Assembly (NCBI GenBank): GCA_964572175.1
Contig: CAZNEH010000001.1
Coordinates: forward strand, 9,788 to 73,787
Reading direction: 5' to 3'
Length of the DNA stretch: 64,000 nt
Source: an uncultured Gammaproteobacteria bacterium
GTDB lineage: Bacteria > Patescibacteriota > Patescibacteriia > UBA9570 > CAZNEH01
The notes beneath the pieces were generated by a model. The model was not told the DNA's origin. It ran no database searches and was given only the letters and a program-made list of their open reading frames with translations. The translations under genes and the position numbers were made by a program. Below, piece by piece: positions 2,385 through 48,965 of the stretch. Every line of letters begins with the position of its first letter. Within the stretch, counting starts at the first letter, position 1.

Positions 2385-2393
2385 TATAAATAT

Positions 2394-3854: not shown

Positions 3855-3991
3855 ATTTACTATTATAGCAGAAAAGTAAGTAAAGTTAAGTATTTTATCT
3901 ATCTGGCATTATTAGAAGTAAATTTTTCAATTGAATATTATATAATTAATATAGAGGGAAAAAGCATTTTTTTACATATTTTTACACTTTT

Positions 3992-4834: not shown

Positions 4835-4837
4835 TAG

Positions 4838-5743: not shown

Positions 5744-5789
5744 TTAAGTTTTTTTAGTATTATATTATTATTAACTAATAATAATATAA

Positions 5790-7055
5790 ATGAAAATATT
5801 TAATAAACACTTACATGACATTACTTATGATGAAATAATATCTTTTTGCAATGAAGGGCATATAGAAAGTTTATATTTAGATTACAAAGAAGATGTGAGT
5901 AGATCAAATTCAGTTGCTAAAACTTCAGCGGCAATGGCAAATTCTTTTGGCGGAATAATAATAATAGGTGTTGCTGATGACAATAATTATCCTAAATTAC
6001 CTGTAAAGGGTCTAGATAAATTAACAGAGGAGCAAATTACTCAAATAATTTCAGATAACACATTTCCACTAATTACACCAGAAATAAAAGTATATAAAAA
6101 AGCTAATCGATATTTAGGTATAGTTAGAGTTAAGCCATCGCAATCTACTCCAATTTTTTTTACTAAAGATAATACTATTCCTGTTAGAGTTAATAATATT
6201 ACAAAAAAATTTGAAGATAATGCAGATTTAAAACAGTTAGATTGGTTATGGAATAATAGAAAAAAATCTATAGAACTTTATGAAAATTGTTTATCATTTG
6301 CCAGGGATACTTTCGAAAAACAACGAAGTAATTTACATGGATTGGAATCTTTAATTGAAGCAAAAAAAGATCCATATTCTCCCCGCATGGTTAACTCTAA
6401 ACGCTTGTTAAGAGATCCGCATTATTTTCCAAATAGAATCGAAATATTTTCTCGACCTATTTATCCTGATATTACCCCCTTGAAAAATCCGAAAGAATTA
6501 AATGATATTTTTCCGAAAATTAATGTAAATGTAGATGAAAATTGCGGAGAGTTTCCAAGAAATATTCACAAAAGACGACGTATTTCCGGTGGTAGTATTA
6601 TTCAAGAATTAAAATCTAGAGGTTTAATTTATACCGAAATTAATCAATATGGATTATATTATCATAATGAAAAAATAATTATGCAAGATTATGATTTAAT
6701 GATTGATGAACATTATAACATTGACCATTTAACAAGCGAAGCTATAGCAGTATTAAAATGGCCAGTATTAAAAGGAGTGTTTATTTCCTTTTTAGAGTCT
6801 TTAAAACTATTTTATAAAGAAATTGAATATTATGGATATATTGAAATTGGTATAAAGCTTTTCTCTGTAAATACTATGCAATTAATTAAGGAGCAAATAG
6901 AAACTGAATTATATGATTCTCCTTTAGGCGCTTACTCAGTTGATGATTATATAAATTGGGATAGTGGAATTATCAATGTTTCAGAAATTGATAATAATTT
7001 AATAAATGATCTCGAAGAATACATTGATGATTTATTCGATTATAAAAAAAGATAA
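5790..7055 (+). CDS. AlbA_2 (Schlafen-like / divergent AAA_4) DNA-binding domain protein
   Basis: ESLYLDYKED...AAMANSFGGIIIIGVADD matches the AlbA_2 E..lEfK...AfaNt.GG.iiiGv.d signature. Confidence 0.6.
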   Translation: MKIFNKHLHDITYDEIISFCNEGHIESLYLDYKEDVSRSNSVAKTSAAMANSFGGIIIIGVADDNNYPKLPVKGLDKLTEEQITQIISDNTFPLITPEIKVYKKANRYLGIVRVKPSQSTPIFFTKDNTIPVRVNNITKKFEDNADLKQLDWLWNNRKKSIELYENCLSFARDTFEKQRSNLHGLESLIEAKKDPYSPRMVNSKRLLRDPHYFPNRIEIFSRPIYPDITPLKNPKELNDIFPKINVNVDENCGEFPRNIHKRRRISGGSIIQELKSRGLIYTEINQYGLYYHNEKIIMQDYDLMIDEHYNIDHLTSEAIAVLKWPVLKGVFISFLESLKLFYKEIEYYGYIEIGIKLFSVNTMQLIKEQIETELYDSPLGAYSVDDYINWDSGIINVSEIDNNLINDLEEYIDDLFDYKKR

Positions 7056-7207
7056 TTATTACTTTCTTTTTATAATATTATTTGTTATTATTTAAGTATT
7101 AATTATTAAGTGGAAGTACCCAGCGGTTAATACTGTTTATACTCACTGAAACAAGTAGTTTAAATCTAACCTTAGCCGAAAAACAAGGATTTTAAAACCT
7201 CGACCTA

Positions 7208-7254
7208 CCATGGTAAGGGAAAGGTCCGCGGTTCGAATCCGCGCAACGGCTCCA
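7208..7254 (+). tRNA. 3' fragment of the disrupted tRNA-Thr(GGU) (anticodon loop, 3' anticodon stem, variable loop, T-arm, acceptor 3' strand, CCA)
   Basis: CCATGGTAAGG-GAA-AGGTC-CGCGGTTCGAATCCGCG-CAACGGC-T-CCA. Perfectly complementary to the 29..68 5' half. Confidence 0.7.
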
Positions 7255-7326
7255 ATAAGCTACCCGAAAGGGTGGTTTTTTTTAACATTGACAAAAGCCA
7301 TAAAAATAGGGTATATTAATAGTACA

Positions 7327-19824: not shown

Positions 19825-19909
19825 GGGTCGGTACCAAAGCGGTCAAATGGGGCAGACTGTAAATCTGCTGGCATCGCCTTCGCTGGTTCGAATCCAGCCC
19901 GGCCCACCA
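19825..19909 (+). tRNA. tRNA-Tyr (anticodon GUA), class II with long variable arm, CCA encoded
   Basis: Acceptor GGGTCGG/CCGGCCC. Anticodon stem-loop GCAGA-CTGTAAA-TCTGC. T-arm GCTGGTTCGAATCCAGC. TTGACT-N17-TATATT promoter upstream. Confidence 0.85.
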
Positions 19910-19949
19910 GTGGCGTTTGCTACGCAACCGCACTGGCACGCCTCCCCGC

Positions 19950-20023
19950 GCCACCCTAGCTCAGCTGGTCAGAGCAACTGTTTTGTAAACAGTAGGTCGT
20001 CGGTTCGACTCCGACGGGTGGCT
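19950..20023 (+). tRNA. tRNA-Thr (anticodon UGU)
   Basis: GCCACCC-TA-GCTCAGCTGGTCAGAGC-A-ACTGT-TTTGTAA-ACAGT-AGGTC-GTCGGTTCGACTCCGAC-GGGTGGC-T. No encoded CCA. Confidence 0.85.
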
Positions 20024-20123
20024 CAGAAATATAATTAAGTAGATCTGGACAAGCCAGATCATAACAGCACTGTTAAGATGGGCTGTTGTGACCGAGCTTG
20101 CCTAGGTCATAAAAAAGTAAAAT

Positions 20124-20279
20124 ATGTCTCAAGATCGATTGATCAAACTGGAATGCACTGAATGCAAACGAGTAACTCATCATTCTTTTAAGAACAAAAA
20201 GATTCATAAGGAAAGATTAGAGTTAAGTAAGTTCTGTAAATTCTGTAAAAAGCATACCCCTCACAAAGAAACTAAATAA
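20124..20279 (+). CDS. rpmG: 50S ribosomal protein L33 (51 aa, not in ORF track)
   Basis: [51 protein letters not shown]: CxxC...CxxC zinc ribbon with the KN.K..PEKLELKK(Y/F)C..C.KHT.HKE L33 signature. Confidence 0.9.
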
Positions 20280-20285
20280 TTTTAT

Positions 20286-20723
20286 ATGGAGGATAAAAAT
20301 TGTGTCTTTTGTAACGAGGAACAAATAGCGGCTCATCAGATTTATGAGACCAAGCTTTTTAGGATTTTAATTGATAAGAAGCCGATTGCGGCCGGACATT
20401 GTTTAATTGTTACTAAGCGACATACTCCATCTTTTAGCTATTTGAATCAAGACGAAGTAGAAGAATTTGCCTATCTAATTAAAAAGTTGGGCTTAGCGTT
20501 GATGCGGGCAGTTCGTGCTGAAGGATACAATGTGTTGTTTAATGAAGGAACTGCGGCCGGACAAACAGTAAATCATTTTCATATTCACGTAATTCCTCGC
20601 CAGCAAGAAACAGCGGATATTAATCCTAAAGATGTTTTAGCTAAAGCCTTAAAAGCAAGAAAAGAATTAAGTATAGAAGAAGTAAAAGAAGCTCGAGAAA
20701 ATCTTTCCAAAGAGATTTATTAA
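20286..20723 (+). CDS. HIT family hydrolase
   Basis: Histidine triad VNHFHIHVIP. Confidence 0.85.
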   Translation: MEDKNCVFCNEEQIAAHQIYETKLFRILIDKKPIAAGHCLIVTKRHTPSFSYLNQDEVEEFAYLIKKLGLALMRAVRAEGYNVLFNEGTAAGQTVNHFHIHVIPRQQETADINPKDVLAKALKARKELSIEEVKEARENLSKEIY

Positions 20724-20728
20724 AATAT

Positions 20729-20803
20729 GGGGGCGTAGCTCCAATTGGCTAGAGCACTGGTCTCCAAAACCAGGTGTTGCAGGTTCGAATCCTGCCGCCC
20801 CCG
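20729..20803 (+). tRNA. tRNA-Trp (anticodon CCA)
   Basis: Acceptor GGGGGCG/CGCCCCC. Anticodon stem-loop CTGGT-CTCCAAA-ACCAG. T-arm GCAGGTTCGAATCCTGC. Confidence 0.85.
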
Positions 20804-20807
20804 CAGT

Positions 20808-21416
20808 ATGAATATAGTGCACAGAAAATTATTCCACATCGGAACTATCTTGCCTTTTGCTATTTTAATCTTTTTTATTGATGACCAAATTCCGCGGTCA
20901 TTTTTTATTTGGATAGGAGCAGCCTTGTTTATAATTTTTGCTTTATTTGAATATTATAGATTTAAAGAAAGGAAAATTCAAGAGATGTTAATGAAGAATT
21001 TTTCTAGCTTGTTTAAGGAAAAGGAAAAGGAAAATATTACGGCTTTGATATTTGGGCCAGTGGCTTTGATTATTTTGGTTTTGTTTTTTAGTAAGTTTGC
21101 CGTGGTGTCTGCGGTATGGGTGGGATGCATTAGTGATTCTGTGGCGGCGATTGTGGGGACTAAATATGGGACTAAGAAAAATCATTTAGGAAAAACTTGG
21201 GAAGGAACTGCTGGTTATTTTGTGTCTGCGTTTATTTTGTTGATTTTGCTTAATATTTTATTAAGCAGCCCAATTAGTTGGTTTTTCTTGTTGGGAGTGG
21301 CCCTGCTGGCGGCGTTAGTAGAGCGGGTAACTAGTATTTTAGATGATAATTTGGTAGTGCCAGTTGTAGTAGCAATAGCTATTGAATTGTTGTATAATAT
21401 AAGTGTAATATTTTAA
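20808..21416 (+). CDS. CTP_transf_1-family membrane protein (phosphatidate cytidylyltransferase / dolichol-kinase-like)
   Basis: Start trimmed to the ATG after the tRNA (track start 20745 overlaps tRNA-Trp). Multi-TM protein. SDSVAAIVGTKYGTKKNHLGKTWEGTAGYF resembles the CdsA-family SD..A...G...GK.K..P.KTWEG block. Confidence 0.5.
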   Translation: MNIVHRKLFHIGTILPFAILIFFIDDQIPRSFFIWIGAALFIIFALFEYYRFKERKIQEMLMKNFSSLFKEKEKENITALIFGPVALIILVLFFSKFAVVSAVWVGCISDSVAAIVGTKYGTKKNHLGKTWEGTAGYFVSAFILLILLNILLSSPISWFFLLGVALLAALVERVTSILDDNLVVPVVVAIAIELLYNISVIF

Positions 21417-34287: not shown

Positions 34288-36777
34288 ATGGATGAAGGAA
34301 TGTTATTTTTTGGCCTAGTTTTAGTGGCTTTTACTTGCTACGCTGGGTTTAAGTTTAAATCTCGAGCCATGCGTTATATTGGCTTGTTTTTTAGTATTGT
34401 TATCGCTTTATTTTTTCTTTTGAATAATATTGCCTTTGCTCAAACTGATTTTGATTTAAGTGAATTAAATCAGTTTACAGGAGAGGATTTAGCTGATTTT
34501 GCAGGAAAAAGCGTTAGTTATGCTGGGGACGTAGATGGTGATGGATATAATGATTTTATAGTTGGGGCTGATCAGAATGATGATGGCGGAAATCAAGCCG
34601 GAGCAGCTTATTTAATTTATGGGCAGTCTGAAGAATATTCTTCATTAACTGATTTATCAACGGTAGCTAAATTTATTGGAGAAGCAGGTGGTGATTATGC
34701 TGGAAAAAGCGTTAGTTATGCTGGGGACGTAGATGGTGATGGATATGATGATTTTTTAATTGGAGCTTATTTAAATGATGATGCCGGAAGTCAGGCCGGA
34801 GCAGCTTACTTAATTTATGGGCAAAGCGATAAGTATACAGGAGATATTGATTTGTCTACTAAGGCACAATTTACCGGAGAGGCAATTGATGATTATGCGG
34901 GGGTAAATGTATCCTCGGCTGGTGATGTAGATGGTGATGGATATGATGACTTTTTAGTTGGGTCTAGTAGAAATGGAGATGGAGCAAGTAAAGCTGGTGC
35001 AGCTTATTTAATTTATGGACAAAGCGCTGATTATACTGGAACAATTAGCTTGTCTACTAGGGCACAATTTACTGGAGAGGCAATTGATGATTATGCTAGT
35101 AAGGTTTCAGCAGCTGGAGACGTAGACAATGATGGGTATGATGATTTTTTAGTTGGATCTAAAGATAATGATGACGGAGGAAGCGGTGCTGGTGCAGCTT
35201 ATTTAATTTATGGACAAAGCGCTGATTATACTGGAACAATTAGCTTGTCTACTAGGGCACAATTTACCGGAGAGGCAGCTGGTGATTCTTCGGGAGTATC
35301 TGTTGCTGCGGCCGGTGATGTTGATAATGACGGATACGATGATATTTTAATTGGAGCATTTTTAAATGACGATGGTGGAAGTCAAGCTGGAGCAGTTTAT
35401 TTAATATATGGCCAAAGCGCCGATTATACTGGAACGTCTAACTTGTCTACTAAAGCACAATTTACCGGAGAGGCAGCTGGTGATGACGCAGGGGTAAGTG
35501 TAGCTTCGGCTGGAGATGTTGATAATGATGGGTACGATGATTTTTTAGTAGGAGCTTATTTAAATGATGCTGGTGGAGATATTGCCGGAGCAGCTTATTT
35601 AATTTATGGGCAAAGCGCGGATTATACAGGAACAGCTAGTTTGTCTACTAAGGATAAGTTTATTGGAGAAGAATCATTGGATTATGCAGGAATAAGCGTA
35701 TCGACAGCTGGTGATATTAATAATGATGGTTATAGTGATATTTTAATAGGGGCTTATCAAAATAGTGAGGGTGGAAGTCTGGCTGGAGCAGCTTATGTGG
35801 GTTATTTGCATATTGATTTAGATGGAGACGGGGTAACAGCTACTACTAGCTTAATTGCCGGAACTGATTGTAATGATAATGACGCAGCAATTTCTGCTAA
35901 TCAAACTTATTATCAGGATTCAGATGGCGATGGTTATGGCTCAGACACTACTACTTCGGTTTGTTCTTTAACAGCGCCGACAGGCTATGTGGCTAACTCA
36001 GATGATGCTAATGACAATGATTATGATAATGATGGCTCAGAAACCGGAACTGATTGCGATGATACTGATGATACTATTAGTGAGAATCAAACTTATTATC
36101 TAGATTCAGATGGAAATGGGTATGGTGATCCAGCAGAGACCACAGAGGTTTGTTCTTATACTGTGCCAGATGGTTATGCGTCTGAGGCTCGACTAGATGT
36201 GCCAGAAAATTTAGTTAATACAGACAGAGGAATTTATAAGGCTACTTTAGGTTGGGATGAAGTTAGTGATGTAGAAAGTTATAATATTAGATATAGAAAG
36301 TCTTCTGAATCAAGCTATACGACTACTACTAGTTCTATAAATAGTGTGGAGTTGGAAGATTTAGAAAATGCGGGAAAATATTATTGGCAAGTACAGGGGG
36401 TATCTGGTAGTTATACTTCAGAATGGACAGATGGAAAAAGATTAGTAACTTATCCAAGAAAGATAACTAAGTCTGAATTTACTTTTCCTAAGTCTGATAG
36501 AAAAGCAAAGAAGCTTAGAATAAAAATAGAGACTATGGCTAAAAGAGTGACTGGTTTTAATATTTTAGTTTATAAAAAGAAGAGTGGAAAGTGGAGTAAA
36601 ATAGAAACAGTTAAAAGATCTAATGATAGTTCTAAGAATTATGTTTATAAATATATTACTGGGTTAAAGCCAGATACTAAATATAAGTTTGAAGTAAAAG
36701 CTAGGAGAACTATTGGTTCAACTAAATACTTAAGTCAGAACGTAGCCACCAGATATATTACGACTAAATCGCTATGA
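34288..36777 (+). CDS. secreted FG-GAP (integrin-alpha-like) repeat beta-propeller protein with MopE-like Cys repeats and Lys-rich FN3-like C-terminal domain
   Basis: Seven or more repeats of AGDVDGDGYDDFL(I/V)GA...AGAAYLIYGQS. CNDND/CDDTD Cys motifs. Basic C-terminus. Confidence 0.8.
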   Translation: MDEGMLFFGLVLVAFTCYAGFKFKSRAMRYIGLFFSIVIALFFLLNNIAFAQTDFDLSELNQFTGEDLADFAGKSVSYAGDVDGDGYNDFIVGADQNDDGGNQAGAAYLIYGQSEEYSSLTDLSTVAKFIGEAGGDYAGKSVSYAGDVDGDGYDDFLIGAYLNDDAGSQAGAAYLIYGQSDKYTGDIDLSTKAQFTGEAIDDYAGVNVSSAGDVDGDGYDDFLVGSSRNGDGASKAGAAYLIYGQSADYTGTISLSTRAQFTGEAIDDYASKVSAAGDVDNDGYDDFLVGSKDNDDGGSGAGAAYLIYGQSADYTGTISLSTRAQFTGEAAGDSSGVSVAAAGDVDNDGYDDILIGAFLNDDGGSQAGAVYLIYGQSADYTGTSNLSTKAQFTGEAAGDDAGVSVASAGDVDNDGYDDFLVGAYLNDAGGDIAGAAYLIYGQSADYTGTASLSTKDKFIGEESLDYAGISVSTAGDINNDGYSDILIGAYQNSEGGSLAGAAYVGYLHIDLDGDGVTATTSLIAGTDCNDNDAAISANQTYYQDSDGDGYGSDTTTSVCSLTAPTGYVANSDDANDNDYDNDGSETGTDCDDTDDTISENQTYYLDSDGNGYGDPAETTEVCSYTVPDGYASEARLDVPENLVNTDRGIYKATLGWDEVSDVESYNIRYRKSSESSYTTTTSSINSVELEDLENAGKYYWQVQGVSGSYTSEWTDGKRLVTYPRKITKSEFTFPKSDRKAKKLRIKIETMAKRVTGFNILVYKKKSGKWSKIETVKRSNDSSKNYVYKYITGLKPDTKYKFEVKARRTIGSTKYLSQNVATRYITTKSL

Positions 36778-39551: not shown

Positions 39552-40100
39552 ATGGACCAAAAATTGGTGTTAGCTGCTTTGAAAAACCCTGATGATTATA
39601 CCCAAATAGTTCAAAAGTACGAAAAGCCTATTTTAAGCTATATTATGCGGATTTCGGGTGTTAGCTACCAAGAGGCCGAAGACATTGGGCAGGAAATATT
39701 TTTAAAAGCATATACTAATTTAAATGATTACGACCAGCGGAGGAAGTTTTCGACTTGGCTTTTTTCGATTGCTCATAACGAGACTATTTCTCATTGGCGA
39801 AAGAATAAAAAGCGTTTAAAAGACTTGGACATAGAAGATGATGTGCTGCAGAATATTTTGCCAGATGAATTTGACATGGTTAAAAATATTGATGATAAAG
39901 TTTTAAAACAAGAAATAAAAGAAGCTATTAAAAAGTTGGATATTAAATATCGGGAAGTTTTGCAGTTGAAGTATTATGATGATTTATCTTATGAAGAGAT
40001 TTCTGATATTATTAAAAAGCCAGTTAATACTGTAGGGACGTTGTTGAATCGAGCCAAGAAGAAGTTAGAAAAGTTATTAGCCAATAAAAAATATGACTAA
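39552..40100 (+). CDS. ECF-type RNA polymerase sigma factor (sigma-70 regions 2 and 4)
   Basis: Region 2 blocks (FLKAYTNLNDYD...FSTWLFSIAHNETISHWR) and region 4 HTH (SYEEISDIIKKPVNTVGTLLNRAKKKL). Confidence 0.85.
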   Translation: MDQKLVLAALKNPDDYTQIVQKYEKPILSYIMRISGVSYQEAEDIGQEIFLKAYTNLNDYDQRRKFSTWLFSIAHNETISHWRKNKKRLKDLDIEDDVLQNILPDEFDMVKNIDDKVLKQEIKEAIKKLDIKYREVLQLKYYDDLSYEEISDIIKKPVNTVGTLLNRAKKKLEKLLANKKYD

Positions 40101-40764
40101 CATAGCCGAAGAGATTAAGAAAAAAATAGAAGAAAAAAAGCTCAAGCCAAAGCCAAGAGTGTGGTTTGTAATTAAGCATGTTTTGTTATTGGCTGGAGCA
40201 GTTGTTTCTCTAATATTTATTAGTTTAGCTTTAAGTTTAAGCTGGGAGATTTTAGAGGATCAAGAAATTTGGGCTTTACGTCGAAAGATATTTTTAATGG
40301 TTGAAGCGATTCCTTATTTTTGGATTGGAATAGCTGTGATTGTGGGAGTCCTTGGTTATTTGGATTTAAAAAAGACTAAGCGAGGGTATAAAGTGCGGCT
40401 ATGGAAGGTTTTAGGAGGAATGGCTTTAGTTTGTTTATTTTTAGCGAGTATATTTTATTTTGTGGGAGTAGCTGAAAAAGCAGAAGAAAGATTAGAAAAG
40501 AGAATGAAGGGGTATCATAAAGTAGTGCCATTTTCCGAACATCATTGGATGCAGCCAGAACGTGGTTTATTAATGGGAGATGTTTTAGATATTTCAGAGG
40601 AAGAAATAGAATTAGAAGATTTAGAAGAAAATTATTGGATAGTAATAATTGAAGAGGATACTAGATTTGGGAAAAAAGGAAAACCAGAAAAAGGCCATAG
40701 AATTAAAGTTTTAGGTGAAGAAGAGGAGGAAGAGTTTAGATTTAAGGCTGAGTTTGTGAAATAA
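40093..40764 (+). CDS. membrane protein, candidate anti-sigma factor
   Basis: Overlaps the sigma factor gene by 8 nt. Three TM helices. Confidence 0.45.
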   Translation: MTNIAEEIKKKIEEKKLKPKPRVWFVIKHVLLLAGAVVSLIFISLALSLSWEILEDQEIWALRRKIFLMVEAIPYFWIGIAVIVGVLGYLDLKKTKRGYKVRLWKVLGGMALVCLFLASIFYFVGVAEKAEERLEKRMKGYHKVVPFSEHHWMQPERGLLMGDVLDISEEEIELEDLEENYWIVIIEEDTRFGKKGKPEKGHRIKVLGEEEEEEFRFKAEFVK

Positions 40765-41238: not shown

Positions 41239-42129
41239 TTATCTAATGAATTCGCTTTGATATTCAGGGTTTATTTTTTTAGTGAAGCAAATTTCACCAG
41301 TGTCGTGCTCCCAGGTGTTTGCGGGAATGGTCATGTCGTACTTATTACTGAATTCGTAGCCATAGCTAGGGAAGTTGAACTCGGTACAGATTTGATAATG
41401 GGTTTCGTCAGTAATAGTGTATTGATAAGCTTCTTTGTAATCGTCGAAATCAGTAATATTTTCTGGGAGAGCTTTTTGATTATTATAGTAAGAGCTAATA
41501 CTGTAGTCTAGAGATTCTAGGTCATTAATTTTATCTTGGTCGATGTTGCGAAGTCTTTGATTAGCTGGAGAGCCAACAAAGAAGAATCCGGCGATTATAG
41601 CAGCTAGAACAACTATAGAGGTAAAGATAAATAAAAAGCGAAGTTGTTTGTCGTATTTATTTTTTAAGTCAACAATATAGTAACCGAAAACAATTCCGGC
41701 GACAAAGAAGACGGTTAAAACTTTTAAGGCAAAAGCCATGGTTAGGCCGCCGTATAAGAAGCCGATTAATAAGGCAATTAAGTTTCCGATAATTAATAGG
41801 GCAGTAACAAATAAAGTGAAGTAAACTAACCACTTACGTAAAAACATTTCTTTTTTCCAAGCATCTTTGGCATAGCTTTTTTTAATTAGCCAGGTGCTGA
41901 TTACATAAACAGGGTAGGTGATAATTAAAAAGGCCAGTCCACTGCGAATGAGGTCGTAAGCTCCTTCGATTTGATAGGAGTGGATGTAGTCCTCGGCTAA
42001 TAGGTCTGGCATTAATAGGTTGATAATTTGGAAGATAACCACCATAAAGCTGATAGCACTGGCATACAGCATAATGACGGAAAGGAGGTGCATAAACACG
42101 TCCTTGGCGGAGATTGGTTTTTGTTGCAT
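41239..42129 (-). CDS. integral membrane hypothetical protein
   Basis: Multiple TM helices. Confidence 0.55.
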   Translation of the reverse strand: MQQKPISAKDVFMHLLSVIMLYASAISFMVVIFQIINLLMPDLLAEDYIHSYQIEGAYDLIRSGLAFLIITYPVYVISTWLIKKSYAKDAWKKEMFLRKWLVYFTLFVTALLIIGNLIALLIGFLYGGLTMAFALKVLTVFFVAGIVFGYYIVDLKNKYDKQLRFLFIFTSIVVLAAIIAGFFFVGSPANQRLRNIDQDKINDLESLDYSISSYYNNQKALPENITDFDDYKEAYQYTITDETHYQICTEFNFPSYGYEFSNKYDMTIPANTWEHDTGEICFTKKINPEYQSEFIR

Positions 42130-42191
42130 ATTTTTTTATTTTAATGATTCTTTAATTATAACACAATATCTATAAAATAAATAAATTTTAG

Positions 42192-42220
42192 TTGACAGGG
42201 GTAGTTTATTTAGGTAAGAT
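42192..42220 (+). promoter_or_regulatory. sigma-70-type promoter TTGACA-N17-TAAGAT (first cassette)
   Basis: TTGACA 42192..42197, GGGG-containing spacer, TAAGAT 42215..42220. AGGAGG ribosome-binding site at 42241. Confidence 0.6.
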
Positions 42221-42252
42221 ATTTACGAATCCACAAGCAAGAGGAGGAAATC

Positions 42253-42507
42253 TTGCAAGGACAGACACAGAGAGACAAGCATCCGGCCAAGCATGGCTGG
42301 GTCAAGGTCAAGAAGCTGGTGAACAACTCTCGTGGCCGACGGCGCCCGAAGCGCGTCTGGGTCCAGAGCGGCGATGCTCCTGGTAAGAAGGAGGAGCGCA
42401 TCAGGGCCAAGAAGAAGCGCGAGGCTCAGCAGAGAGCGGCAGCTCAAGAGGCCCGGAGGAAAAGGGATGAAGAGGAGCGCCGAGCAGCACGCCGCCGCTG
42501 GTGGTAG
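42253..42507 (+). CDS. highly basic Lys/Arg-rich small protein (84 aa), TTG start
   Basis: AGGAGG lies 6 nt upstream of the TTG start. KRK/RRR-rich sequence. GC-rich codons. Confidence 0.45.
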   Translation: MQGQTQRDKHPAKHGWVKVKKLVNNSRGRRRPKRVWVQSGDAPGKKEERIRAKKKREAQQRAAAQEARRKRDEEERRAARRRWW

Positions 42508-42533
42508 CTGGTTTTCAGCGACGAGTGTGAATA

Positions 42534-42578
42534 CCCCCCCCTGCAGCTCTACGGAGTTGACAGGGGTTATTTTTTTAT
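42534..42578 (+). terminator. terminator hairpin CCCCTG-N17-CAGGGG plus T-run, with the next promoter's -35 (TTGACA) embedded in the 3' arm
   Basis: CCCCCCCTG cagctctacggagttga CAGGGG TTATTTTTTT, followed by TATACT 18 nt after TTGACA. Confidence 0.55.
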
Positions 42579-42624
42579 TCTATACTTACATTACAATTTT
42601 TCAAACCGACGAAGGAAGATTCCC

Positions 42625-42834
42625 ATGAAGATGCTCAAGTGCGAGAACTGTGGATACCCTATGCCAGTATCTGGCAAAATCAACGAAGATGATGGCCTGC
42701 GGTGCCCGATCTGCAACGGGCTGATGAAGAAGCCTGGGGCCGGGGAGCCGACGACCGAGGTGGACATCACCGAACGTCCCTTCATTCCGCCGCGGCCACT
42801 GCCGCCGCCGACCGAGATCCCGGCCTACGCTTAG
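42625..42834 (+). CDS. zinc-ribbon small protein (69 aa)
   Basis: CENC...CPIC pairs. Ribosome-binding site GAAGGAAG. Pro-rich C-terminus. Confidence 0.5.
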   Translation: MKMLKCENCGYPMPVSGKINEDDGLRCPICNGLMKKPGAGEPTTEVDITERPFIPPRPLPPPTEIPAYA

Positions 42835-42961
42835 GCCAAGGACAACTTCGCGGGCATTAGCCCCACGACCCTAGGATGAGATTCATCTGATGGGTCGCTT
42901 TTTTTGACTAAAACAGGGTGGGGTGGTAGGCTAAAGTTAGCGTAAACCAAGGGAGGTACGC

Positions 42962-43348
42962 ATGTGTGAGAAAAGGTATTTCTTCGATGATCGTCAGTCC
43001 ACCCAGTTCAAGTGCGTCTGCGGGGGATCGGTCGTGGTTCTGGAGCATGATGCTCAGGCCGAGAAGATCGGGTGTCAGTCCTGCGGCAAGACGGCTCGGG
43101 TTCGTCCGAGTGCTTCTCCAGACACTCTGATCGAGTGCCAGCCGGAGAAGTGGTCGGGGACGAACTTCTACCTCGAGAACCATGGGCCCGACAAGGGCTG
43201 GACTCACTGCGGCCAGCCCATGGTGATCATCGGTCGTCTGGATGCTCACCTGTGGCCAGTTGGCTGCCAGGTCTGTGGAGCCATGGGCCATGTCGGACAC
43301 AACTCCACGCCCGAGGACTGGCCGCCCGACGGCAGCTGCTCTGGCTAG
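42962..43348 (+). CDS. Cys-rich small protein, family A member 1 (128 aa)
   Basis: Ribosome-binding site AAGGGAGG. Shares HCG(Q/R)(P/T)MVIIG...GCQVCG...H.G.N...W.P with the 45593..45934 product. Confidence 0.55.
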   Translation: MCEKRYFFDDRQSTQFKCVCGGSVVVLEHDAQAEKIGCQSCGKTARVRPSASPDTLIECQPEKWSGTNFYLENHGPDKGWTHCGQPMVIIGRLDAHLWPVGCQVCGAMGHVGHNSTPEDWPPDGSCSG

Positions 43349-43370
43349 AGCACACAACGACTTGTTCGAT

Positions 43371-43404
43371 GACCTATATTGGGGGATATAGGTCATATTT
43401 TTTT
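43371..43404 (+). terminator. rho-independent terminator (GACCTATAT family)
   Basis: GACCTATAT-tggggg-ATATAGGTC plus T-run. Confidence 0.7.
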
Positions 43405-43486
43405 CCGCCTTCGCAGACTGCGGCGGACAAGTTTGACTCTAATGGGGTGGGATGGTAGGGTTAAATTAACAAGGGAGGATTTAGAA

Positions 43487-43882
43487 ATGTCTAAGAGAAG
43501 TGAACCTTTTGACGCTTGCTTGGCTGGCTGGATGGAGTTGGAAGAGATGATGCTTCGGGATCGGCCCCCAGTTCGAGCGAGGAAGCTCAAGAAAGGGATG
43601 CTGAAGCGCTGGTCCTGGGTGACCAATTCCCGCGGGAAAAAGGTTCGGCGTAAGACCTGGGGTAAGCCTGGTCCGCCGCCGAAGCCTCGTTCGGGTAATC
43701 TAGTGGCCTTCAACGCTTCGGATCAGTGGCGGCTGCACCGGGCGGCTGGAGTTAAGAGCCGGAGGGACTGGGATAGGCTGACCACTTGCCAACAGGACGA
43801 GGTTTTTATGAAGGCCCTGGAAGATGGTTTGGAGCCCTTTAGCCTGGTCGATGGCTATCGGCACTTCTGCCGTGGCGACTAA
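43487..43882 (+). CDS. basic small protein (131 aa), start trimmed to the ATG with a ribosome-binding site
   Basis: AGGGAGG lies 7 nt upstream of the ATG at 43487. Promoter TTGACT-N17-TAGGGT at 43433..43461. Confidence 0.5.
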   Translation: MSKRSEPFDACLAGWMELEEMMLRDRPPVRARKLKKGMLKRWSWVTNSRGKKVRRKTWGKPGPPPKPRSGNLVAFNASDQWRLHRAAGVKSRRDWDRLTTCQQDEVFMKALEDGLEPFSLVDGYRHFCRGD

Positions 43883-43991
43883 CCCCTGTTCAACCCGAGT
43901 GGTTGACAGGGGGTATTTTTATTTGGGTTGACCCGGGGAGGGTTTTGTGCTAAGGTTAGGGCGCCTAATTCACAAAGGGAGGGCACACAAA

Positions 43992-44462
43992 ATGCTCGGT
44001 TTGATTTCCAGAGGCTGGCATATGTTCATGGGTCTGTGGGTGGAAGATATCGAGACGGTTCGCGGTGTTCCGCTGAAGCCTGGAGTGGTTCACGACCTCT
44101 TCATCTGCGGTGGCTGGCCGTTCAAGGCCGAGATCGTGCCGGAGTACGTGGCGATCAGGCCCAGGGGCGAGACCTGGCCGCTGGACTACGGTATGATGTC
44201 CAAGAGCTTCCGGCACCGTGACTCCAAGGCGCTGCAGGCCTACAACTGGTCCATGGTGCGTCGGACCGATGGCGGTCCCATGTTCGAGTGCGACCACAAC
44301 ATCTTCGTCCTCCGCGTCCACAAGGGTGAACTTCCTCGACATGATCACTTCATCGCACGCGAGGGGCGTGATTTCTCTGAGGCCCAGGTCTTAGAGGTCA
44401 TCGACGACGAGAAGGATCTGATCATGTGCGTCTGGATCCGCGAGGCCGGGCTCGTCGAGTAG
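43992..44462 (+). CDS. small protein, family B member 1 (156 aa)
   Basis: AGGGAGG ribosome-binding site. N-terminus MLGLISRGWHMFMGLWV is paralogous to MLSWLARPWNSFIGLWV of the 45252..45554 product. The ~70-bp promoter/5'UTR is near-identical to the one at 45182..45251. Confidence 0.55.
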   Translation: MLGLISRGWHMFMGLWVEDIETVRGVPLKPGVVHDLFICGGWPFKAEIVPEYVAIRPRGETWPLDYGMMSKSFRHRDSKALQAYNWSMVRRTDGGPMFECDHNIFVLRVHKGELPRHDHFIAREGRDFSEAQVLEVIDDEKDLIMCVWIREAGLVE

Positions 44463-44484
44463 CGGCGAAGACAACTAGTTCGAT

Positions 44485-44518
44485 GACCTATATCGGGGGG
44501 ATATAGGTCGTTTTTTTA
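44485..44518 (+). terminator. rho-independent terminator (GACCTATAT family)
   Basis: GACCTATAT-cgggggg-ATATAGGTC-G-T7. Confidence 0.7.
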
Positions 44519-44586
44519 TTGACTTAGAGTGGGGGAGATGTTAGGGTAAAAATAGTGTTCAACTTCAACCCCGAGCTCGAGGTGAG

Positions 44587-44799
44587 ATGATGAAAGGTGC
44601 TGCTCTCAGCTGTGTTCCCTGTGACTGGACGGCGACTGATGTGTCCAATGCAAGGTTCTGTCCGTTCTGTGGAGATGATCTGGAGAAGAAGGGAGTCCTG
44701 GGCAAGAAGGTTCCCTTCCGGGTGAAGCTCTTGGCCCGCGTGCCCGTGACCGCGAGGCTCAGGCGCCTGGCTTCTATCTTCGGGGAAGACAAGCGCTAG
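44587..44799 (+). CDS. zinc-ribbon small protein (70 aa)
   Basis: CVPC...CPFC pairs. Promoter TTGACT-N17-TAGGGT at 44519..44547. Confidence 0.5.
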   Translation: MMKGAALSCVPCDWTATDVSNARFCPFCGDDLEKKGVLGKKVPFRVKLLARVPVTARLRRLASIFGEDKR

Positions 44800-44927
44800 A
44801 CAGCGACGACGAGGTAAGTGTGGGCCGTGCCCGCCATAGTCCTGATTCATATCGGGACGACGGCGGGTCTATTTTTTTGACTAAAAAAACAGGGGATGTT
44901 AGAGTATTATTATCAAGGGGGAAAGAC

Positions 44928-45143
44928 ATGGATTTTAGTATTTTTCTAGTGGCAATGATCGTGGCTTCACTGGGCCTGGGTAAACACTTCGTTTTCAGGG
45001 GCGCAGAAAAAATGGATCGCTTCAAAAAGAATACGGGGCGCACCGTTACAGAGCGAGAAGAGGTACACGAGGCAGAGGGCCTTCTTCTGGCAGGGGGCAT
45101 CCTGATTTTCTTGGCGTTCAATGCCGCGATGTTCATTCTTTAG
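44928..45143 (+). CDS. small two-TM membrane protein (71 aa)
   Basis: Ribosome-binding site AAGGGGGA, ATG at 44928. Two hydrophobic helices. Promoter TTGACT-N17-TAGAGT at 44877..44905. Confidence 0.45.
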   Translation: MDFSIFLVAMIVASLGLGKHFVFRGAEKMDRFKKNTGRTVTEREEVHEAEGLLLAGGILIFLAFNAAMFIL

Positions 45144-45251
45144 CCCGCTACAGTCTTCGGACCACGGCGGGTTCTTTTTTTATTTGGGTTGACTCGGGAG
45201 GGTTTTGGTGCTAAGGTAAGGGCGCCTAATTCACAAGGGAGGGCATGTAAG

Positions 45252-45554
45252 ATGTTGTCATGGTTGGCTAGACCGTGGAATTCATTCATTGGTCTGTGGG
45301 TTCATGGTGCCCCTCAGATCGAGGATCAGCAGGTTTCCGAGCCGCTGCAGGTCGACGAGGTCGAGCTGGTGGTCGGGGAGACCTTCTTTTTCCAGAGGGA
45401 CAAGTTCTTCATCGTGATCACCTGGAGTGCTCGCAGCGCGCGGCGTCCGGTGGTCGGCGATCGGATCAAGGGATCGTCTGGGCAGGACGCGATCGTGCTG
45501 TCGACCATTCCTGGAGAGAAGAACAAGTACCTCTGCCGGATCATGATCGACTAG
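45252..45554 (+). CDS. small protein, family B member 2 (100 aa)
   Basis: AGGGAGG ribosome-binding site. Paralogue of the 43992..44462 product. Co-transcribed with the downstream family A gene, with no intervening terminator. Confidence 0.55.
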   Translation: MLSWLARPWNSFIGLWVHGAPQIEDQQVSEPLQVDEVELVVGETFFFQRDKFFIVITWSARSARRPVVGDRIKGSSGQDAIVLSTIPGEKNKYLCRIMID

Positions 45555-45592
45555 GCAGAGCAGAACTACACGAATCACACGAGGAGGTGTGC

Positions 45593-45934
45593 ATGTCGGA
45601 AGCGAGGTACCACAAGAACCACTTCGGTCTGAAGGAGGGCTTCGAGCACTGCGGCCGGACCATGGTGATCATCGGATGTGGCGATCGTCTGGAGACGCTC
45701 GGCTGCCAGGTCTGCGGTCACACGCAGCACTCTGGCATGAACACGGAAAACTGGACGCCCACGTCGACGGATGACGAGGACGACGATCCGGAGGAGGAGT
45801 CAGCGCCTCGGCCCTGGCTTCGAGATTCGGGTCCCAGCTCCTGCGAAGGGTGTACTCGTTACGGGGAGACCTGTTCCGGGTCTACCTTCGGAGAATCGTG
45901 CACCGACGCAGATGATGGACACCGTAGCTGGTGA
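45593..45934 (+). CDS. Cys-rich small protein, family A member 2 (113 aa)
   Basis: AGGAGG ribosome-binding site, ATG at 45593. Motif EHCGRTMVIIGCGDRLETLGCQVCGHTQHSGMN is paralogous to the 42962..43348 product. Confidence 0.55.
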   Translation: MSEARYHKNHFGLKEGFEHCGRTMVIIGCGDRLETLGCQVCGHTQHSGMNTENWTPTSTDDEDDDPEEESAPRPWLRDSGPSSCEGCTRYGETCSGSTFGESCTDADDGHRSW

Positions 45935-45940
45935 TTCCAT

Positions 45941-45976
45941 GACCTACACCGGGGGGATGTAGGTCGTATTTTTTTA
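45941..45976 (+). terminator. rho-independent terminator (GACCTA family)
   Basis: GACCTACA-ccgggggga-TGTAGGTC plus T-run. Confidence 0.7.
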
Positions 45977-46036
45977 TTTTGACTAATTTGGGGTGGGGTG
46001 TTAAGGTTAAATTGAAAATAGTAACTTAGAACACTT

Positions 46037-46714
46037 ATGAAAAAATTATCCCTCGCGATCTTGGTATTAGCGTTTTTTGCGTTGACTATGCCAAGTAGCT
46101 CGTCCGCAGCTGTTAGAACTGTGACGACAATTAAAAAAGCTTCAGGTTTAAAAGCTGATATCTCCGCAGACTCTGATTCCAAACTTAGATGGACCAAGGT
46201 TTCCAAGACCAAGTATTATAAAGTTCAGCTTAAAAAGAAAAACGGTAAAAAAGTTAAGACTTGGACAAAGCGGAAAAAGAATTGGGTAAAGATTACGGAT
46301 AATGTAAAAGAGGGGAAGAAGTATAAGTATAGAGTGAGGGGTTGTAAAAAGAATAAATGTGGGAAGTGGTCGAAATATAAATATTTTAATACTAATGATT
46401 TAGTTGAAGAAACTGAAGAAGAGGTAGTTGTTAGTGAAGAGAGTAATGAACAATCAGAAGAGGTGGTTACTACGCCAGTAGTTGAGCCTACTCCAGATCC
46501 GACTCCTGATCCTGAGCCAACGCCTGAGCCGGAACCCACTCCTGAGCCAGAGCCAGTTAGCTATGAGTGTAGCGCAAATATTTATAATTGTAGTGACTTT
46601 AATTATCAGTCAGAGGCACAAGATGCTTATGAGCAGTGTTTAGCTGAAGTGGGGGATGATATTCATGATTTGGATAGGGATGGGAATGGGTTGGCTTGCG
46701 AGAGTTTAAAATAG
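46037..46714 (+). CDS. secreted protein: signal peptide, Lys-rich FN3-like domain, PEPTPEP linker, C-terminal Excalibur calcium-binding domain
   Basis: Driven by a promoter TTGACT-aatttggggtggggtgt-TAAGGT identical in style to the GC-rich cassettes, but the gene itself is low-GC. C-terminal CSDF...DRDGNGLACE matches the Excalibur motif. Confidence 0.7.
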   Translation: MKKLSLAILVLAFFALTMPSSSSAAVRTVTTIKKASGLKADISADSDSKLRWTKVSKTKYYKVQLKKKNGKKVKTWTKRKKNWVKITDNVKEGKKYKYRVRGCKKNKCGKWSKYKYFNTNDLVEETEEEVVVSEESNEQSEEVVTTPVVEPTPDPTPDPEPTPEPEPTPEPEPVSYECSANIYNCSDFNYQSEAQDAYEQCLAEVGDDIHDLDRDGNGLACESLK

Positions 46715-46719
46715 AAGAT

Positions 46720-47448
46720 ATGAAAAAAAATAAATTTGAAGATAATTTATTTTATAAAAATTTTTATGGTAAAAATGGTTTTTTAACCCCTATAATGATT
46801 AAAATGGTTAAGGAGGGGCGTGGAAAAGATTCTGTTAATTTAGAAAAAGATGAACAGTCTACAGTAGATTGTTTTAAATTAGTAAAAGAAATTGATTTAA
46901 AAATAAGAGATTTAAATTATTGTATATACTTGATTAAATATTATCCTAGTAATAAAAAATTACGAGATAATATAACTAGGCACGATTACATAATTTATCA
47001 TTTAGAATATTTTTATATAAATGTAGTAGCGTTATTTGATAGGATTTTAAAATTATCAAATTTTGTACATGACATTGGCTTGTCTGATAAATATGTTAAA
47101 TTAGATATTCTTATTACAAATAAGAAGATAAGTAAGCAGCACGTTAGTGCATTAAAAAAGTTCAATAAGTCGATAGAAGAAATAAGAGGTATACAAAATA
47201 ATATAAAGCACAAAGAAAAATTGAAAGACCCAGGAATAAAGAACGCACAGTTACTAGAGTCTCTTTATAGGGTTAATAATTTAGACAAAAAAAGTGCAGC
47301 ATACTTGGGTTCTAAAAAAGAGTATAATAAATATATAAAAGATAAAGTGCAAAAAATAAAAGAATTTAACGATACTATAGAAGTAGTAGTTTTTGATTTA
47401 GTCGATTCTTTTTACAGCACGTATGAATCTAATTTTATTAATAAGTAA
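46720..47448 (+). CDS. hypothetical protein
   Basis: ATG at 46720 preferred over the upstream TTG. No recognisable domain. Confidence 0.45.
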   Translation: MKKNKFEDNLFYKNFYGKNGFLTPIMIKMVKEGRGKDSVNLEKDEQSTVDCFKLVKEIDLKIRDLNYCIYLIKYYPSNKKLRDNITRHDYIIYHLEYFYINVVALFDRILKLSNFVHDIGLSDKYVKLDILITNKKISKQHVSALKKFNKSIEEIRGIQNNIKHKEKLKDPGIKNAQLLESLYRVNNLDKKSAAYLGSKKEYNKYIKDKVQKIKEFNDTIEVVVFDLVDSFYSTYESNFINK

Positions 47449-47454: not shown

Positions 47455-47709
47455 ATGCCCACATTCCGAGAAAAAGTACTAAAAGTAGTGTCTCAGATTA
47501 CGAAAGGGAAGGTTTTGACGTATAAGGAAGTAGCTAAGAAGGCGGGGAGTGCGGGAGCGTCGCGGGCAGTGGGGAATATCCTGAATAAAAATTACGATAA
47601 AAAAATACCCTGTCATAGGGTGGTTCGATCTGATGGGAAGATAGGTGGCTATAATCGAGGAGAGGCTAAGAAGAGAAATCTGTTAAAAGAAGAGGGAGTT
47701 ATCCTTTAG
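47455..47709 (+). CDS. ogt: methylated-DNA-protein-cysteine methyltransferase, DNA-binding/catalytic domain only (MGMT/Ogt C-terminal domain)
   Basis: Active-site PCHRVV motif with Cys retained. 84 aa. Helix-turn-helix-like region. Confidence 0.8.
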   Translation: MPTFREKVLKVVSQITKGKVLTYKEVAKKAGSAGASRAVGNILNKNYDKKIPCHRVVRSDGKIGGYNRGEAKKRNLLKEEGVIL

Positions 47710-48155: not shown

Positions 48156-48965
48156 ATGAAAAAAGAAAAAATGAAAAGAAATAATAAGATAGTATTATTT
48201 CAAAGTAAAAAAATAAGGCGGGTTTGGCATAAAGAAGAATGGTATTATTCGGTTATTGATATCATTGATATTTTAACTGATAGCGCAAACTCAAGGGATT
48301 ATTGGTATCAAATGAAGAAAAGAGTTGGTGATGAAGAAAAAATTGAACTATCGACAATTTGTCGACAGTTGAAATTAAAGGCACTAGATGGAAAGATGAG
48401 ACTTACAGATTGTGCTAGCACAGAAGGAATTTTTAGGATTATTCAGTCAATTCCATCTCCTAAGGTCGAGCCATTTAAGAGATGGTTAGCTAAAGTTGGA
48501 AAAGAAAGATTAGACGAGATAGAGAATCCAGAACTAGCTCAAGAAAGAATGAAGAGAATATATGAACAAAAAGGATATTCTAAAGAATGGATTGATAAAC
48601 GATTAAGGGGAATTGCTATTAGACAGAATTTAACAGATGAGTGGAGAGAAAGAGGGGTTAAGAGACCTAATAATTACGCTATTTTAACAGCTGAGATTTC
48701 TAAGGCGACTTTTGGATTAACTCCAAGTGAATATAGAAGCGTAAAAGGATTAGATAAAAAGAATTTACGTGATTACATGACAGATCTTGAGTTAATATTT
48801 ACTATGTTAGGAGAAAGAGTGACGACGGAAATTTCTAGCCAAGAAAAACCAAAAAATATGCCGTCGCATAAAAAAGTTGCTAAGCGCGGAGGTGGCGTAG
48901 CTGGTAAGGCAAGAAAAGATACGGAAAAAGAATTAGGGCGAAGTGTTATTTCTGGAAATTTATAA
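48156..48965 (+). CDS. dinD: DinD-like DNA-damage-inducible protein (Bro-N/DinD family)
   Basis: N-terminal block KIRRVWHKEEWYYSVIDIIDILTDS and C-terminal block LTAEISKATFGLTPSEYRSVKGLDKKNLRDYMTDLELIFTMLGE align with E. coli DinD blocks recalled from memory. Confidence 0.55.
   Translation: MKKEKMKRNNKIVLFQSKKIRRVWHKEEWYYSVIDIIDILTDSANSRDYWYQMKKRVGDEEKIELSTICRQLKLKALDGKMRLTDCASTEGIFRIIQSIPSPKVEPFKRWLAKVGKERLDEIENPELAQERMKRIYEQKGYSKEWIDKRLRGIAIRQNLTDEWRERGVKRPNNYAILTAEISKATFGLTPSEYRSVKGLDKKNLRDYMTDLELIFTMLGERVTTEISSQEKPKNMPSHKKVAKRGGGVAGKARKDTEKELGRSVISGNL

Follow-up and report, generated by a model that had tools for sequence, protein, structure and literature searches.

Orphan mini-genes between repeated promoter and terminator cassettes in a GC-rich island of an AT-rich bacterial chromosome

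A GC-rich island of nine protein-coding mini-genes

In the 64,000-nucleotide (nt) stretch of contig CAZNEH010000001.1 (assembly GCA_964572175.1) analyzed here, referred to below as the window, a GC-rich block of 3.8 kb lies at approximately positions 42190-46007. Guanine plus cytosine (GC) content within this block is 0.50-0.57 per kb, as compared with 0.27-0.43 in the rest of the window; taken as a whole, the block stands at 55-60% and the genome around it at 33-37%. The block, termed the island, carries nine open reading frames (ORFs), all on the + strand, and these are organized into eight transcription units, seven of which are monocistronic while one, B2-A2, is bicistronic (Table 1). An earlier note on this DNA had described duplicated genes (A1 and A2, B1 and B2) together with a duplicated promoter; these duplications are real, but they form part of a larger nine-gene island that the note overlooked.

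Table 1. Predicted genes, promoters (P) and terminators (T) of the island, with examples of host gene starts (SD, Shine-Dalgarno sequence; UTR, untranslated region; aa, amino acids; pI, isoelectric point; GC3, GC content at the third codon position)
Feature	Position	Strand	Description
Island	42190..46007	+	GC-rich and foreign; nine ORFs in eight transcription units; contrasts with the host in GC, GC3 and SD
g1 promoter	42192..42220	+	P3 type, TTGACA-17-TAAGAT; within the half T3 copy (3' arm only) at the left border
g1	42253..42507	+	84 aa; very basic (pI 11.8); TTG start after AGGAGG; 'family C' with g4
T3a	42534..42576	+	3' arm holds the -35 box of the g2 promoter
g2 promoter	42557-42586	+	P3 type, TTGACA-18-TATACT
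g2	42625..42834	+	69 aa; CxxC...CxxC, predicted zinc-ribbon protein; Pro-rich tail
T4	42867..42905	+	single copy; T-run overlaps the -35 box of the next promoter
P1a	42904..42932	+	TTGACT-N14-TGgTAGGCT
A1	42962..43348	+	128 aa; two A-type Cys/His zinc-ribbon-like domains (residues ~17-47 and ~80-112)
T1a	43369..43405	+	
P1b	43433..43461	+	
g4	43487..43882	+	131 aa; basic (pI 10.3); paralogue of g1
T3b	43883..43921	+	begins immediately 3' of the g4 stop codon
P2a	43928..43991	+	with 5' UTR and SD of B1; near-identical to 45189-45251
B1	43992..44462	+	156-aa orphan; first 17 codons common with B2
T1b	44482..44519	+	
P1c	44519..44547	+	
g6	44587..44799	+	70 aa; CxxC...CxxC, predicted zinc-ribbon protein; basic tail
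T2a	44830..44878	+	
P1d	44877..44905	+	
g7	44928..45143	+	71 aa; hydrophobic segment at each end
T2b	45144..45181	+	
P2b	45189..45251	+	with 5' UTR and SD of B2
B2	45252..45554	+	100-aa orphan; leads the B2-A2 bicistron
A2	45593..45934	+	113 aa; one A domain (residues 1-56), acidic linker, C-terminal 4-Cys cluster
T1c	45939..45980	+	
P1e	45979..46007	+	last island cassette; aimed at host gene 46037-46714
Host starts	9722, 14653, 26242, 30371(-), 32348, 34288, 49957(-)		examples with the TGnTATAAT pattern

All nine + strand ORFs are protein-coding mini-genes. Their GC3 values range from 0.57 to 0.80 (n = 9), as compared with 0.20-0.36 in the flanking host genes, and the codon-position order GC3 > GC1 > GC2 holds in 9/9 frames, while the long - strand ORFs that overlap them display the mirror image of this order and are shadows of the + strand genes. 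A GGAGG-type SD is found upstream of every one of the nine. We attach very little weight to the alternative that the block consists of non-coding repeats or structured RNA genes in which the ORFs are accidental. Structured RNA classically shows up as a GC-rich patch when the genome is AT-rich, long accidental ORFs occur on both strands of GC-rich DNA, and the presence of a promoter and a terminator for each unit recalls small RNA genes. Against this stand the codon-position order with its mirror on the opposite strand, the layout of every ORF (an SD, then a start codon, and an end just before a terminator), and two features of the island proteins discussed below, namely A1/A2 indels in multiples of three and conserved paired CxxC motifs. 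Furthermore, a scan of the island with Rfam returned no match with an E value below 0.18, which is chance level, and the leader common to B1 and B2 folds weakly (-7.6 kcal/mol over 89 nt), with no convincing conserved fold.

The signals for translation differ between the island and its surroundings as clearly as composition does. Whereas GGAGG-type SD sequences accompany all island genes, they precede approximately 4-5 of the 46 host ORFs of at least 120 aa. In approximately nine host genes the sequence TGnTATAAT ends 8-12 nt before the ATG (examples in Table 1), a pattern which suggests that leaderless or near-leaderless mRNAs are widespread in the host. The host itself looks like a reduced bacterium of the candidate phyla radiation (CPR) kind, with a DUF5671 gene, low GC content and many proteins that belong to no family. 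Whether judged by its GC content, by codon usage, by the signals for translation initiation or by the length of leaders, the island is foreign to the genome in which it lies, and the donor implied by these features is one with SD-led translation and a GC content of approximately 60%.

Such a sharp shift of composition and expression signals at both borders, in an organism and island known from one sample only, could also arise were GC-rich foreign DNA, as a contaminant or chimera, misjoined into a low-GC contig during assembly. This is very improbable. Host genes lie on both flanks and therefore two independent misjoins would be needed; the last island promoter lies 29 nt before a host start codon; and a contig of 11,508 bp assembled independently by a second assembler (Logan, run SRR8146440) is 100% identical and spans both island junctions. 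Exact look-ups of the flanking host proteins led to the same single sample only. As far as can be judged, the island is no assembly artefact.

Repeated promoter and terminator cassettes

The pattern TTGAC-N15-TGNTANNNT, comprising a -35 box, a 17-bp spacer and an extended -10 box, occurs nine times in the 64 kb, as compared with an expectation of 0.09, and seven of the nine copies lie inside the island, all on the + strand and each upstream of an SD and ATG. The predicted promoters fall into three types. P1 (five copies) lies upstream of A1, g4, g6, g7 and a host gene and has the G-rich spacer GGGGTGGGRTG; P2 (two copies, ~89% identity) lies upstream of B1 and B2; and P3 (two copies) lies upstream of g1 and g2. 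Similarly, eight hairpins followed by T-runs, with predicted dG values of -16 to -27 kcal/mol, are located right after the eight unit-ending stop codons, and the T-run mostly merges into the next -35 box. Terminator T1 (39 nt; three copies with 69-87% identity among them) lies 3' of A1, B1 and A2, and in the third copy, T1c, one stem pair is changed on both sides, from T-A to C-G, such that pairing is retained. T2 (two copies) lies 3' of g6 and g7, T3 (two and a half copies) lies 3' of g1 and g4 with its 3' arm alone repeated at the left border, and T4 is single. The earlier note saw only the duplicated B promoter, a valid but partial observation: terminators are duplicated as well, and no unit is without a promoter, an SD and a terminator of its own, which together make up a full set of predicted, consensus-like expression signals.

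Cassettes are common to unrelated ORFs, with B1 carrying the A-gene terminator T1, and g6 and g7 being alike in both P1 and T2. The paralogues g1 and g4 have unlike promoter cassettes (P3 and P1, respectively), while within each of the pairs g1/g4 and A1/A2 the terminator is of the same type (T3 and T1, respectively).

At the left border, positions 42190-42212 hold only the 3' arm of T3 with its T-rich tail (AGTTGACAGGGGTAGTTTATTTA; compare 42555-42577), and the TTGACA within this half copy serves as the -35 box of g1. This end of the island gives the impression of having been cut or joined within a cassette, and the half copy, along with the cassettes common to unrelated ORFs, hints at cassette exchange. 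At the right border, P1e is aimed at an AT-rich host gene, 46037-46714, with a leader of 29 nt that is without an SD. The predicted product of this gene has a signal peptide, an Fn3 domain, a Pro/Glu/Thr-rich linker and an Excalibur domain, and P1e may represent capture of a promoter by this host surface-protein gene. A 14-nt direct repeat, TATTTTTTTATTTT, lies left of the island (42129-42142) and again in the T-run of the last terminator (45967-45980). This candidate for a target-site duplication was rejected, its complexity being too low, and the repeat could reflect chance or insertion microhomology.

The arrangement of small, mostly orphan ORFs in a single direction, with an imperfect palindrome from a sequence family behind each of them, raises the question of whether a recombinase assembled the island in the manner of an integron, with the hairpins acting as attC-like recombination sites. 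Integron cassettes are normally promoterless and end in attC (57-141 bp, organized as R''/L''-L'/R', with a GTTRRRY core), and an integron array lies adjacent to an intI integrase with attI and Pc. In contrast, a promoter and an SD accompany each island cassette, the palindromes represent short intrinsic terminators rather than attC sites (hairpins of 28-38 nt, then T-runs), and inspection by eye found no GTTRRRY core at the hairpin ends. Moreover, no integrase, tyrosine or serine recombinase, or transposase was found among the 40 window ORFs outside the island that were scanned with Pfam, a scan of host ORFs from which those at 294-9345 and 14653-19740 were left out. The integron-like explanation is accordingly the one to which we give the least credence of all those considered.

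Relationships among the island proteins

As the earlier note proposed, A1 and A2 are protein-coding paralogues, the relationship being one of domains: residues 70-120 of A1 align with residues 6-54 of A2 with 26/52 identities (50%; E=1e-10 in a pairwise BLASTP). Within this alignment lies the motif HCG(Q/R)(P/T)MVIIG-x8/9-GCQVCG-x3-H-x-G-x-N...W-x-P, the core sequence of which is CACTGCGGCCNGNCCATGGTGATCATCGG. The homologous stretch of DNA is 77% identical, and the similarity is in frame because the gaps are of 3, 6 and 9 nt only; frameshifted similarity, as would be expected of non-coding repeats, was not seen. The differences between the two copies had been described as mostly synonymous or conservative, which is not the case. 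The 57 aligned codons comprise 19 that are identical, 8 with synonymous changes and 30 with non-synonymous changes, and BLAST counts only 7 of the replacements as conservative. By the method of Nei and Gojobori, the numbers of substitutions per non-synonymous site (dN) and per synonymous site (dS) are 0.47 and ~1.0, respectively, near saturation. Constraint lies on the core of Cys, His and hydrophobic residues and not on the domain as a whole.

Further copies of the A domain were found with varying degrees of support. The N-terminal half of A1 contains a more diverged copy (CVCGGSVVVLEHDAQAEKIGCQSCG as compared with HCGQPMVIIGRLDAHLWPVGCQVCG), with local alignment scores of 59-60 against 21-22 +/- 4 for shuffled sequences and 0/3000 shuffles scoring as high. 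The predicted zinc ribbon of g2 weakly resembles the A domain (p = 0.002-0.009 in a shuffle test), and g2 is probably a diverged copy of it. Two additional candidates were rejected: the C-terminal Cys cluster of A2 as a further A domain (p = 0.14-0.69), and a relationship of g6 to g2 or A2, in which the CxxC motifs drive the score (p = 0.02-0.03).

The zinc-ribbon fold consists of two CxxC-type metal-binding knuckles on beta-hairpins, 10-25 residues apart. In the island proteins, the predicted knuckles of g2, g6 and the A domains are 15-20 residues apart and follow the patterns CxxC...CxxC (g2, g6), CxC...CxxC (N-terminal copy of A1) and HC...CxxC with a His (C-terminal copy of A1, and A2). 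A single-sequence AlphaFold2 model of A1, with a predicted local distance difference test score (pLDDT) of 48, places strands and beta-hairpins at the knuckles. Curated zinc-ribbon profiles gave no match above threshold: the best Pfam scores were 18.3 bits for g2 (cut-off 34.4) and 13.5 for A1 (cut-off 31), the best E values were 0.0024 for g2 and 0.07 for A1, and all NCBIfam zinc-ribbon matches of island proteins fell under their cut-offs. Like the small stand-alone zinc-ribbon proteins (Zn_ribbon_8 or FmdB-type CxxC_CxxC_SSSS, DUF1922, Lar), g2, g6 and the A domain have two predicted Cys(His) knuckles. Unlike in those families, the first knuckle of the best-conserved A copy is H-C rather than CxxC, and conserved His residues follow the second knuckle of the A domain. 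The A domain is best described as zinc-ribbon-like, with no matching curated family.

A third pair of paralogues, g1 and g4, was overlooked by the earlier note. These very basic proteins are 28% identical over 79 aa, with 0/3000 shuffles reaching the score and with the motif V-x-NSRG-[KR]-x5-W common to both. The protein encoded by g7 probably has two transmembrane helices.

The relationship between B1 and B2 is of a different kind. The 76 nt upstream of the two genes, from the T-run to the ATG (43916-43991 and 45177-45251), are ~88-90% identical, and the promoter with its 5' UTR is a true duplicate, as had been noted. The first 17 residues are also common to the two proteins, with 9/17 identical (the conserved residues being M, L, R, W, F, G, L, W and V) and with 32/51 (63%) of the corresponding coding nt identical, 2 of the changes being synonymous. 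Beyond codon 17 the best local score is 35, against 25 +/- 4.4 for shuffled sequences (p = 0.04), and it reflects a weak C-terminal match of 35% over 23 aa. The divergence reported after a common N-terminus is thus borne out, and what the two genes are known to have in common is a 5' module of 127 nt, comprising the promoter, the leader and 17 codons, in front of bodies of 139 and 83 residues, respectively. Paralogy of the two bodies was not established, and the designation of B1 and B2 as a protein family is not supported, their bodies being unrelated by every test made. B2 and A2 do form a bicistron with no terminator between them, as proposed; the 38-nt spacer contains AGGAGGTG and no hairpin followed by a T-run. 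It does not follow that A and B function together, since this is the single bicistron of the island, and A1 and B1 form insulated units of their own, separated by g4. The single-sequence AlphaFold2 model of B1 reached a pLDDT of 40, and this model and that of A1 are too poor for a fold search.

A simpler account of these relationships is that plain tandem gene duplication and fast divergence took place within an acquired island, such that the cassettes have no special role and B1 and B2 are full-length paralogues. On this account the B promoter, leader and N-terminus would have been kept by selection or gene conversion, with the 17-residue segment as a functional tag, i.e., a targeting or interaction peptide. 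Several observations agree with it. Divergence in the island is fast, with g1 and g4 at 28% identity and the half-domains of A1 lower still; the C-termini of B1 and B2 match weakly; the conserved residues of the 17 codons are patterned, and two changes are synonymous; and the g1/g4 and A1/A2 pairs have each retained their own terminator type. However, the 76 non-coding nt of the B genes are far more alike (~89%) than the 51 coding nt (63%), and similarity ends abruptly at codon 17; together these features argue for duplication of a module rather than of a whole gene. B1 is also longer than B2 by 56 residues, and cassettes common to unrelated ORFs (T1 with B1, P1 and T2 with g6 and g7) are at odds with cassettes that play no part. 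We regard tandem duplication alone as a serious possibility but, on balance, a doubtful one.

None of the nine island proteins has a detectable relative in the databases searched. Searches of 5.8 billion protein clusters with A1, B1 and the A-domain alignment, and a full HMMER search of 1.84 billion representatives with B1, returned self-matches only. The nine proteins, concatenated, gave no tblastn match at E <= 0.1 in 50,697 phage and 72,556 plasmid records, and island DNA gave no blastn match in phages. Comparison of the island proteins with Pfam, PHROGs, NCBIfam, PADLOC and PDB sequences revealed nothing significant, with sub-threshold zinc-ribbon noise only. Nothing was found in genome contigs with the A-domain alignment, nor in viral contigs with B1 or with a concatenate of the seven proteins that remain when A1 and B1 are set aside. 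One viral contig, L002, matched the A alignment at 3607-3816, and this candidate was rejected: the match derives from the seed peptide HGPDKGWTH in an ORF on the non-coding strand, the real genes being on the opposite strand. The cassettes themselves, searched as DNA motifs, gave zero matches in viral contigs (P1, P2/UTR, T1 and T3) and in metagenome contigs (P1 and T1). A search for an empty site with GreA as the anchor found relatives at 36-40% identity only, at which no comparison of synteny is possible.

Small proteins of this sort, one of them a predicted peptide with two transmembrane segments, next to a Bro-N gene and a very AT-rich orphan, could also make up a native or acquired defence or toxin-antitoxin cluster, in which, for example, g7 would be a membrane toxin and the zinc-ribbon proteins would be regulators. 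PADLOC, Pfam and NCBIfam gave no match for any of the nine proteins, however, and seven of the eight units are monocistronic and insulated, unlike toxin-antitoxin pairs. We consider such a cluster improbable.

Origin of the island and comparison with known systems

Of the explanations considered, we give somewhat better than even chances to the following: that the island is an array of nine orphan mini-genes, expressible in its present form, which was acquired horizontally, is organized like the early or hyperplastic regions of phages, and diversified by duplication and shuffling of cassettes. In this scheme we infer cassette recombination, a phage-like origin, expression in the host and the function of the proteins. 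The unit of the island would be a sigma-70-type extended -10 promoter, a leader of ~30 nt with a GGAGG SD, one or more small ORFs and an intrinsic terminator. Housekeeping RNA polymerase would initiate separately at each promoter of the form TTGACT/17 bp/TGnTAnnnT, the strong SD would promote translation of each mini-gene, and the hairpin and T-run would end transcription, with the T-run doubling as an AT-rich stretch upstream of the next -35 box. Equipped with these signals, each mini-gene would be insulated as well as portable, and the last cassette, P1e, would read out into the host gene. The repeated cassettes would also act as patches of homology of 25-75 bp at which duplication, deletion and replacement may occur. 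Recombination at such patches, along with ordinary gene duplication, could have produced the 5' module of B1 and B2, the presence of T1 on unrelated genes and the half copy of T3 at the border. A1, A2 and probably g2 would then be diverged copies of one domain, g1 and g4 a second pair, and B1 and B2 unrelated bodies that each stand behind one copy of the duplicated 127-nt module. The weakest step concerns function: most likely, the products play accessory roles as small proteins with nucleic acids or proteins of the host as binding partners, as suggested by analogy with phage early and hyperplastic regions and by the presence of putative zinc ribbons, basic proteins, an acidic tail and a membrane protein.

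The closest known counterparts are the PeSL cassettes of the hyperplastic regions of T4-type phages, each of which combines a strong sigma-70-like promoter, an AT-rich upstream stretch, a terminator stem-loop and an SD (Arbiol et al., 2010, PMC2839356). PeSLs precede orphan ORFs and mediate their modular shuffling (PMC2839356; Comeau et al., 2014, PMC4122927), and recombination between cassettes, as well as mini-circles, has been documented (PMC2839356, PMC4122927). Where close relatives differ by indels or replacements, the breakpoints lie in PeSLs, and the mini-circles arise by exchange of one cassette with another. In one subclass, the stem-loop lies upstream of the -35 box (PMC2839356), as it does in the island. 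The predicted island cassettes likewise unite a promoter, an AT-rich stretch and a terminator motif, with seven TTGAC-N15-TGNTANNNT promoters and eight upstream terminators, and many related copies lie between small orphan ORFs and are common to unrelated genes. Several differences are equally clear. The island is part of a bacterial chromosome, has a GC content of 60% and has no phage genes in its vicinity; it resembles neither PeSLs nor any phage record in sequence; its -10 boxes are of the form TA(A/G)(G/A)(G/C)T with TGn whereas those of PeSLs are TATAAT; and cassette recombination, documented for PeSLs, is for the island a reading of the repeat pattern. In the way it works, the island resembles an orphan-gene region bounded by PeSLs, although it does not belong to the PeSL family.

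A second point of comparison is the host-takeover module of phage SPO1 (genes 37-60), which, as summarized in a later account, consists of small genes, mostly without known function, in many short operons (Stewart et al., 1998, via PMC6873191). According to the same account, the module has the promoters and ribosome-binding sites of highly expressed genes and lies in the terminal redundancy of the phage, and several of its products shut off host functions (PMC6873191). The island resembles this module in its small genes, its many short units and its strong housekeeping-sigma promoters and ribosome-binding sites, as predicted, and differs in having neither phage context nor homology.

A number of points weigh against an acquired, cassette-shuffled array of this kind. 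Firstly, the searches above revealed neither a related island nor a donor nor an empty site, such that cassette recombination is read from one static sequence. Secondly, neither a phage structural or replication gene nor an integrase or transposase was found in the scanned regions of the window. Phages are usually at or below the GC content of their hosts. A phage fragment of 60% GC in a cell of 35% GC would therefore need a donor from another host. Thirdly, the function of promoters and terminators is constrained, and part of the similarity among cassettes, especially that of P1, could be convergent. Fourthly, the weak C-terminal likeness of the B1 and B2 bodies (p = 0.04) would fit duplication of a whole gene better than the swapping of modules. 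Lastly, expression of the island is predicted from sequence alone, and the structure models (pLDDT 48 and 40) are unusable.

The flanks of the island are made up of bacterial chromosomal genes, including those for an ECF (extracytoplasmic function) sigma factor, DUF5671, GreA, transketolase and ornithine carbamoyltransferase (OTCase). The gene for the ECF-type sigma factor, together with an overlapping gene for a 223-aa membrane protein, lies at 39552-40764, 1.4 kb left of the island. The membrane protein is probably an anti-sigma factor; the island promoters are of the housekeeping and not the ECF type. Directly to the right of the gene facing P1e, and overlapping its end, is a 250-aa ORF (46696-47448) with a GC content of 24% (GC3 0.20) and no Pfam or PADLOC match, a second compositional outlier adjoining the GC-rich island. 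Further on, 1.5-3 kb right of the island, are a gene for a stand-alone 84-aa MGMT-type DNA-binding domain (47455-47709) and a Bro-N gene (48156-48965), the latter of a family common in phages and mobile elements. The neighbourhood may be a general landing zone for foreign DNA. Elsewhere in the window, the gene for an FG-GAP/Fn3 protein (34288-36777) contains internal DNA repeats of ~77% identity at an offset of ~195-200 nt (35043-35800), which emerged as secondary self-matches of the Logan contig. Genes for tRNA-Thr, tRNA-Tyr, tRNA-Thr and tRNA-Trp are clustered at 181-256 and 19825-20804, and that for tRNA-Trp (20729-20804) overlaps a TTG-start ORF (20745-21416), the start of which is probably mis-set.

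A bolder version of the acquired-array reading, which we put forward as speculation and consider unlikely, would see the island as a 'gene nursery' in which new families (A, B and C) arise, and cassette shuffling as general beyond T4-type phages. The array would have crossed from an SD-using donor of ~60% GC to a largely SD-less, CPR-like bacterium of ~35% GC, arriving with its own expression signals and possibly bounded by cassettes, after which one promoter would have taken over a host surface-protein gene. To our knowledge, promoter-terminator cassette shuffling of orphan genes has so far been described only in the genomes of T4-type phages.

As an object the island is unusually clean and consists wholly of orphans, and its expression 'dialect' contrasts strikingly with that of the host. 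The practical weight of the case is limited, as it concerns a single locus without comparators, the function of which is read from sequence only. If the acquired-array reading is true, however, the island would represent a clean natural case of orphan genes that travel and multiply as insulated promoter-gene-terminator units, and the PeSL idea, hitherto one of T4-type phages, would come to include a chromosome of a cell. The island would further comprise no fewer than three protein families (the Cys/His domain of A1 and A2, the basic g1/g4 proteins and the B 17-residue segment) without a relative among billions of sequences, and would mean that a reduced, AT-rich and mostly SD-less bacterium is able to take up DNA written in another dialect of GC content, codons, SD sequences and long leaders.

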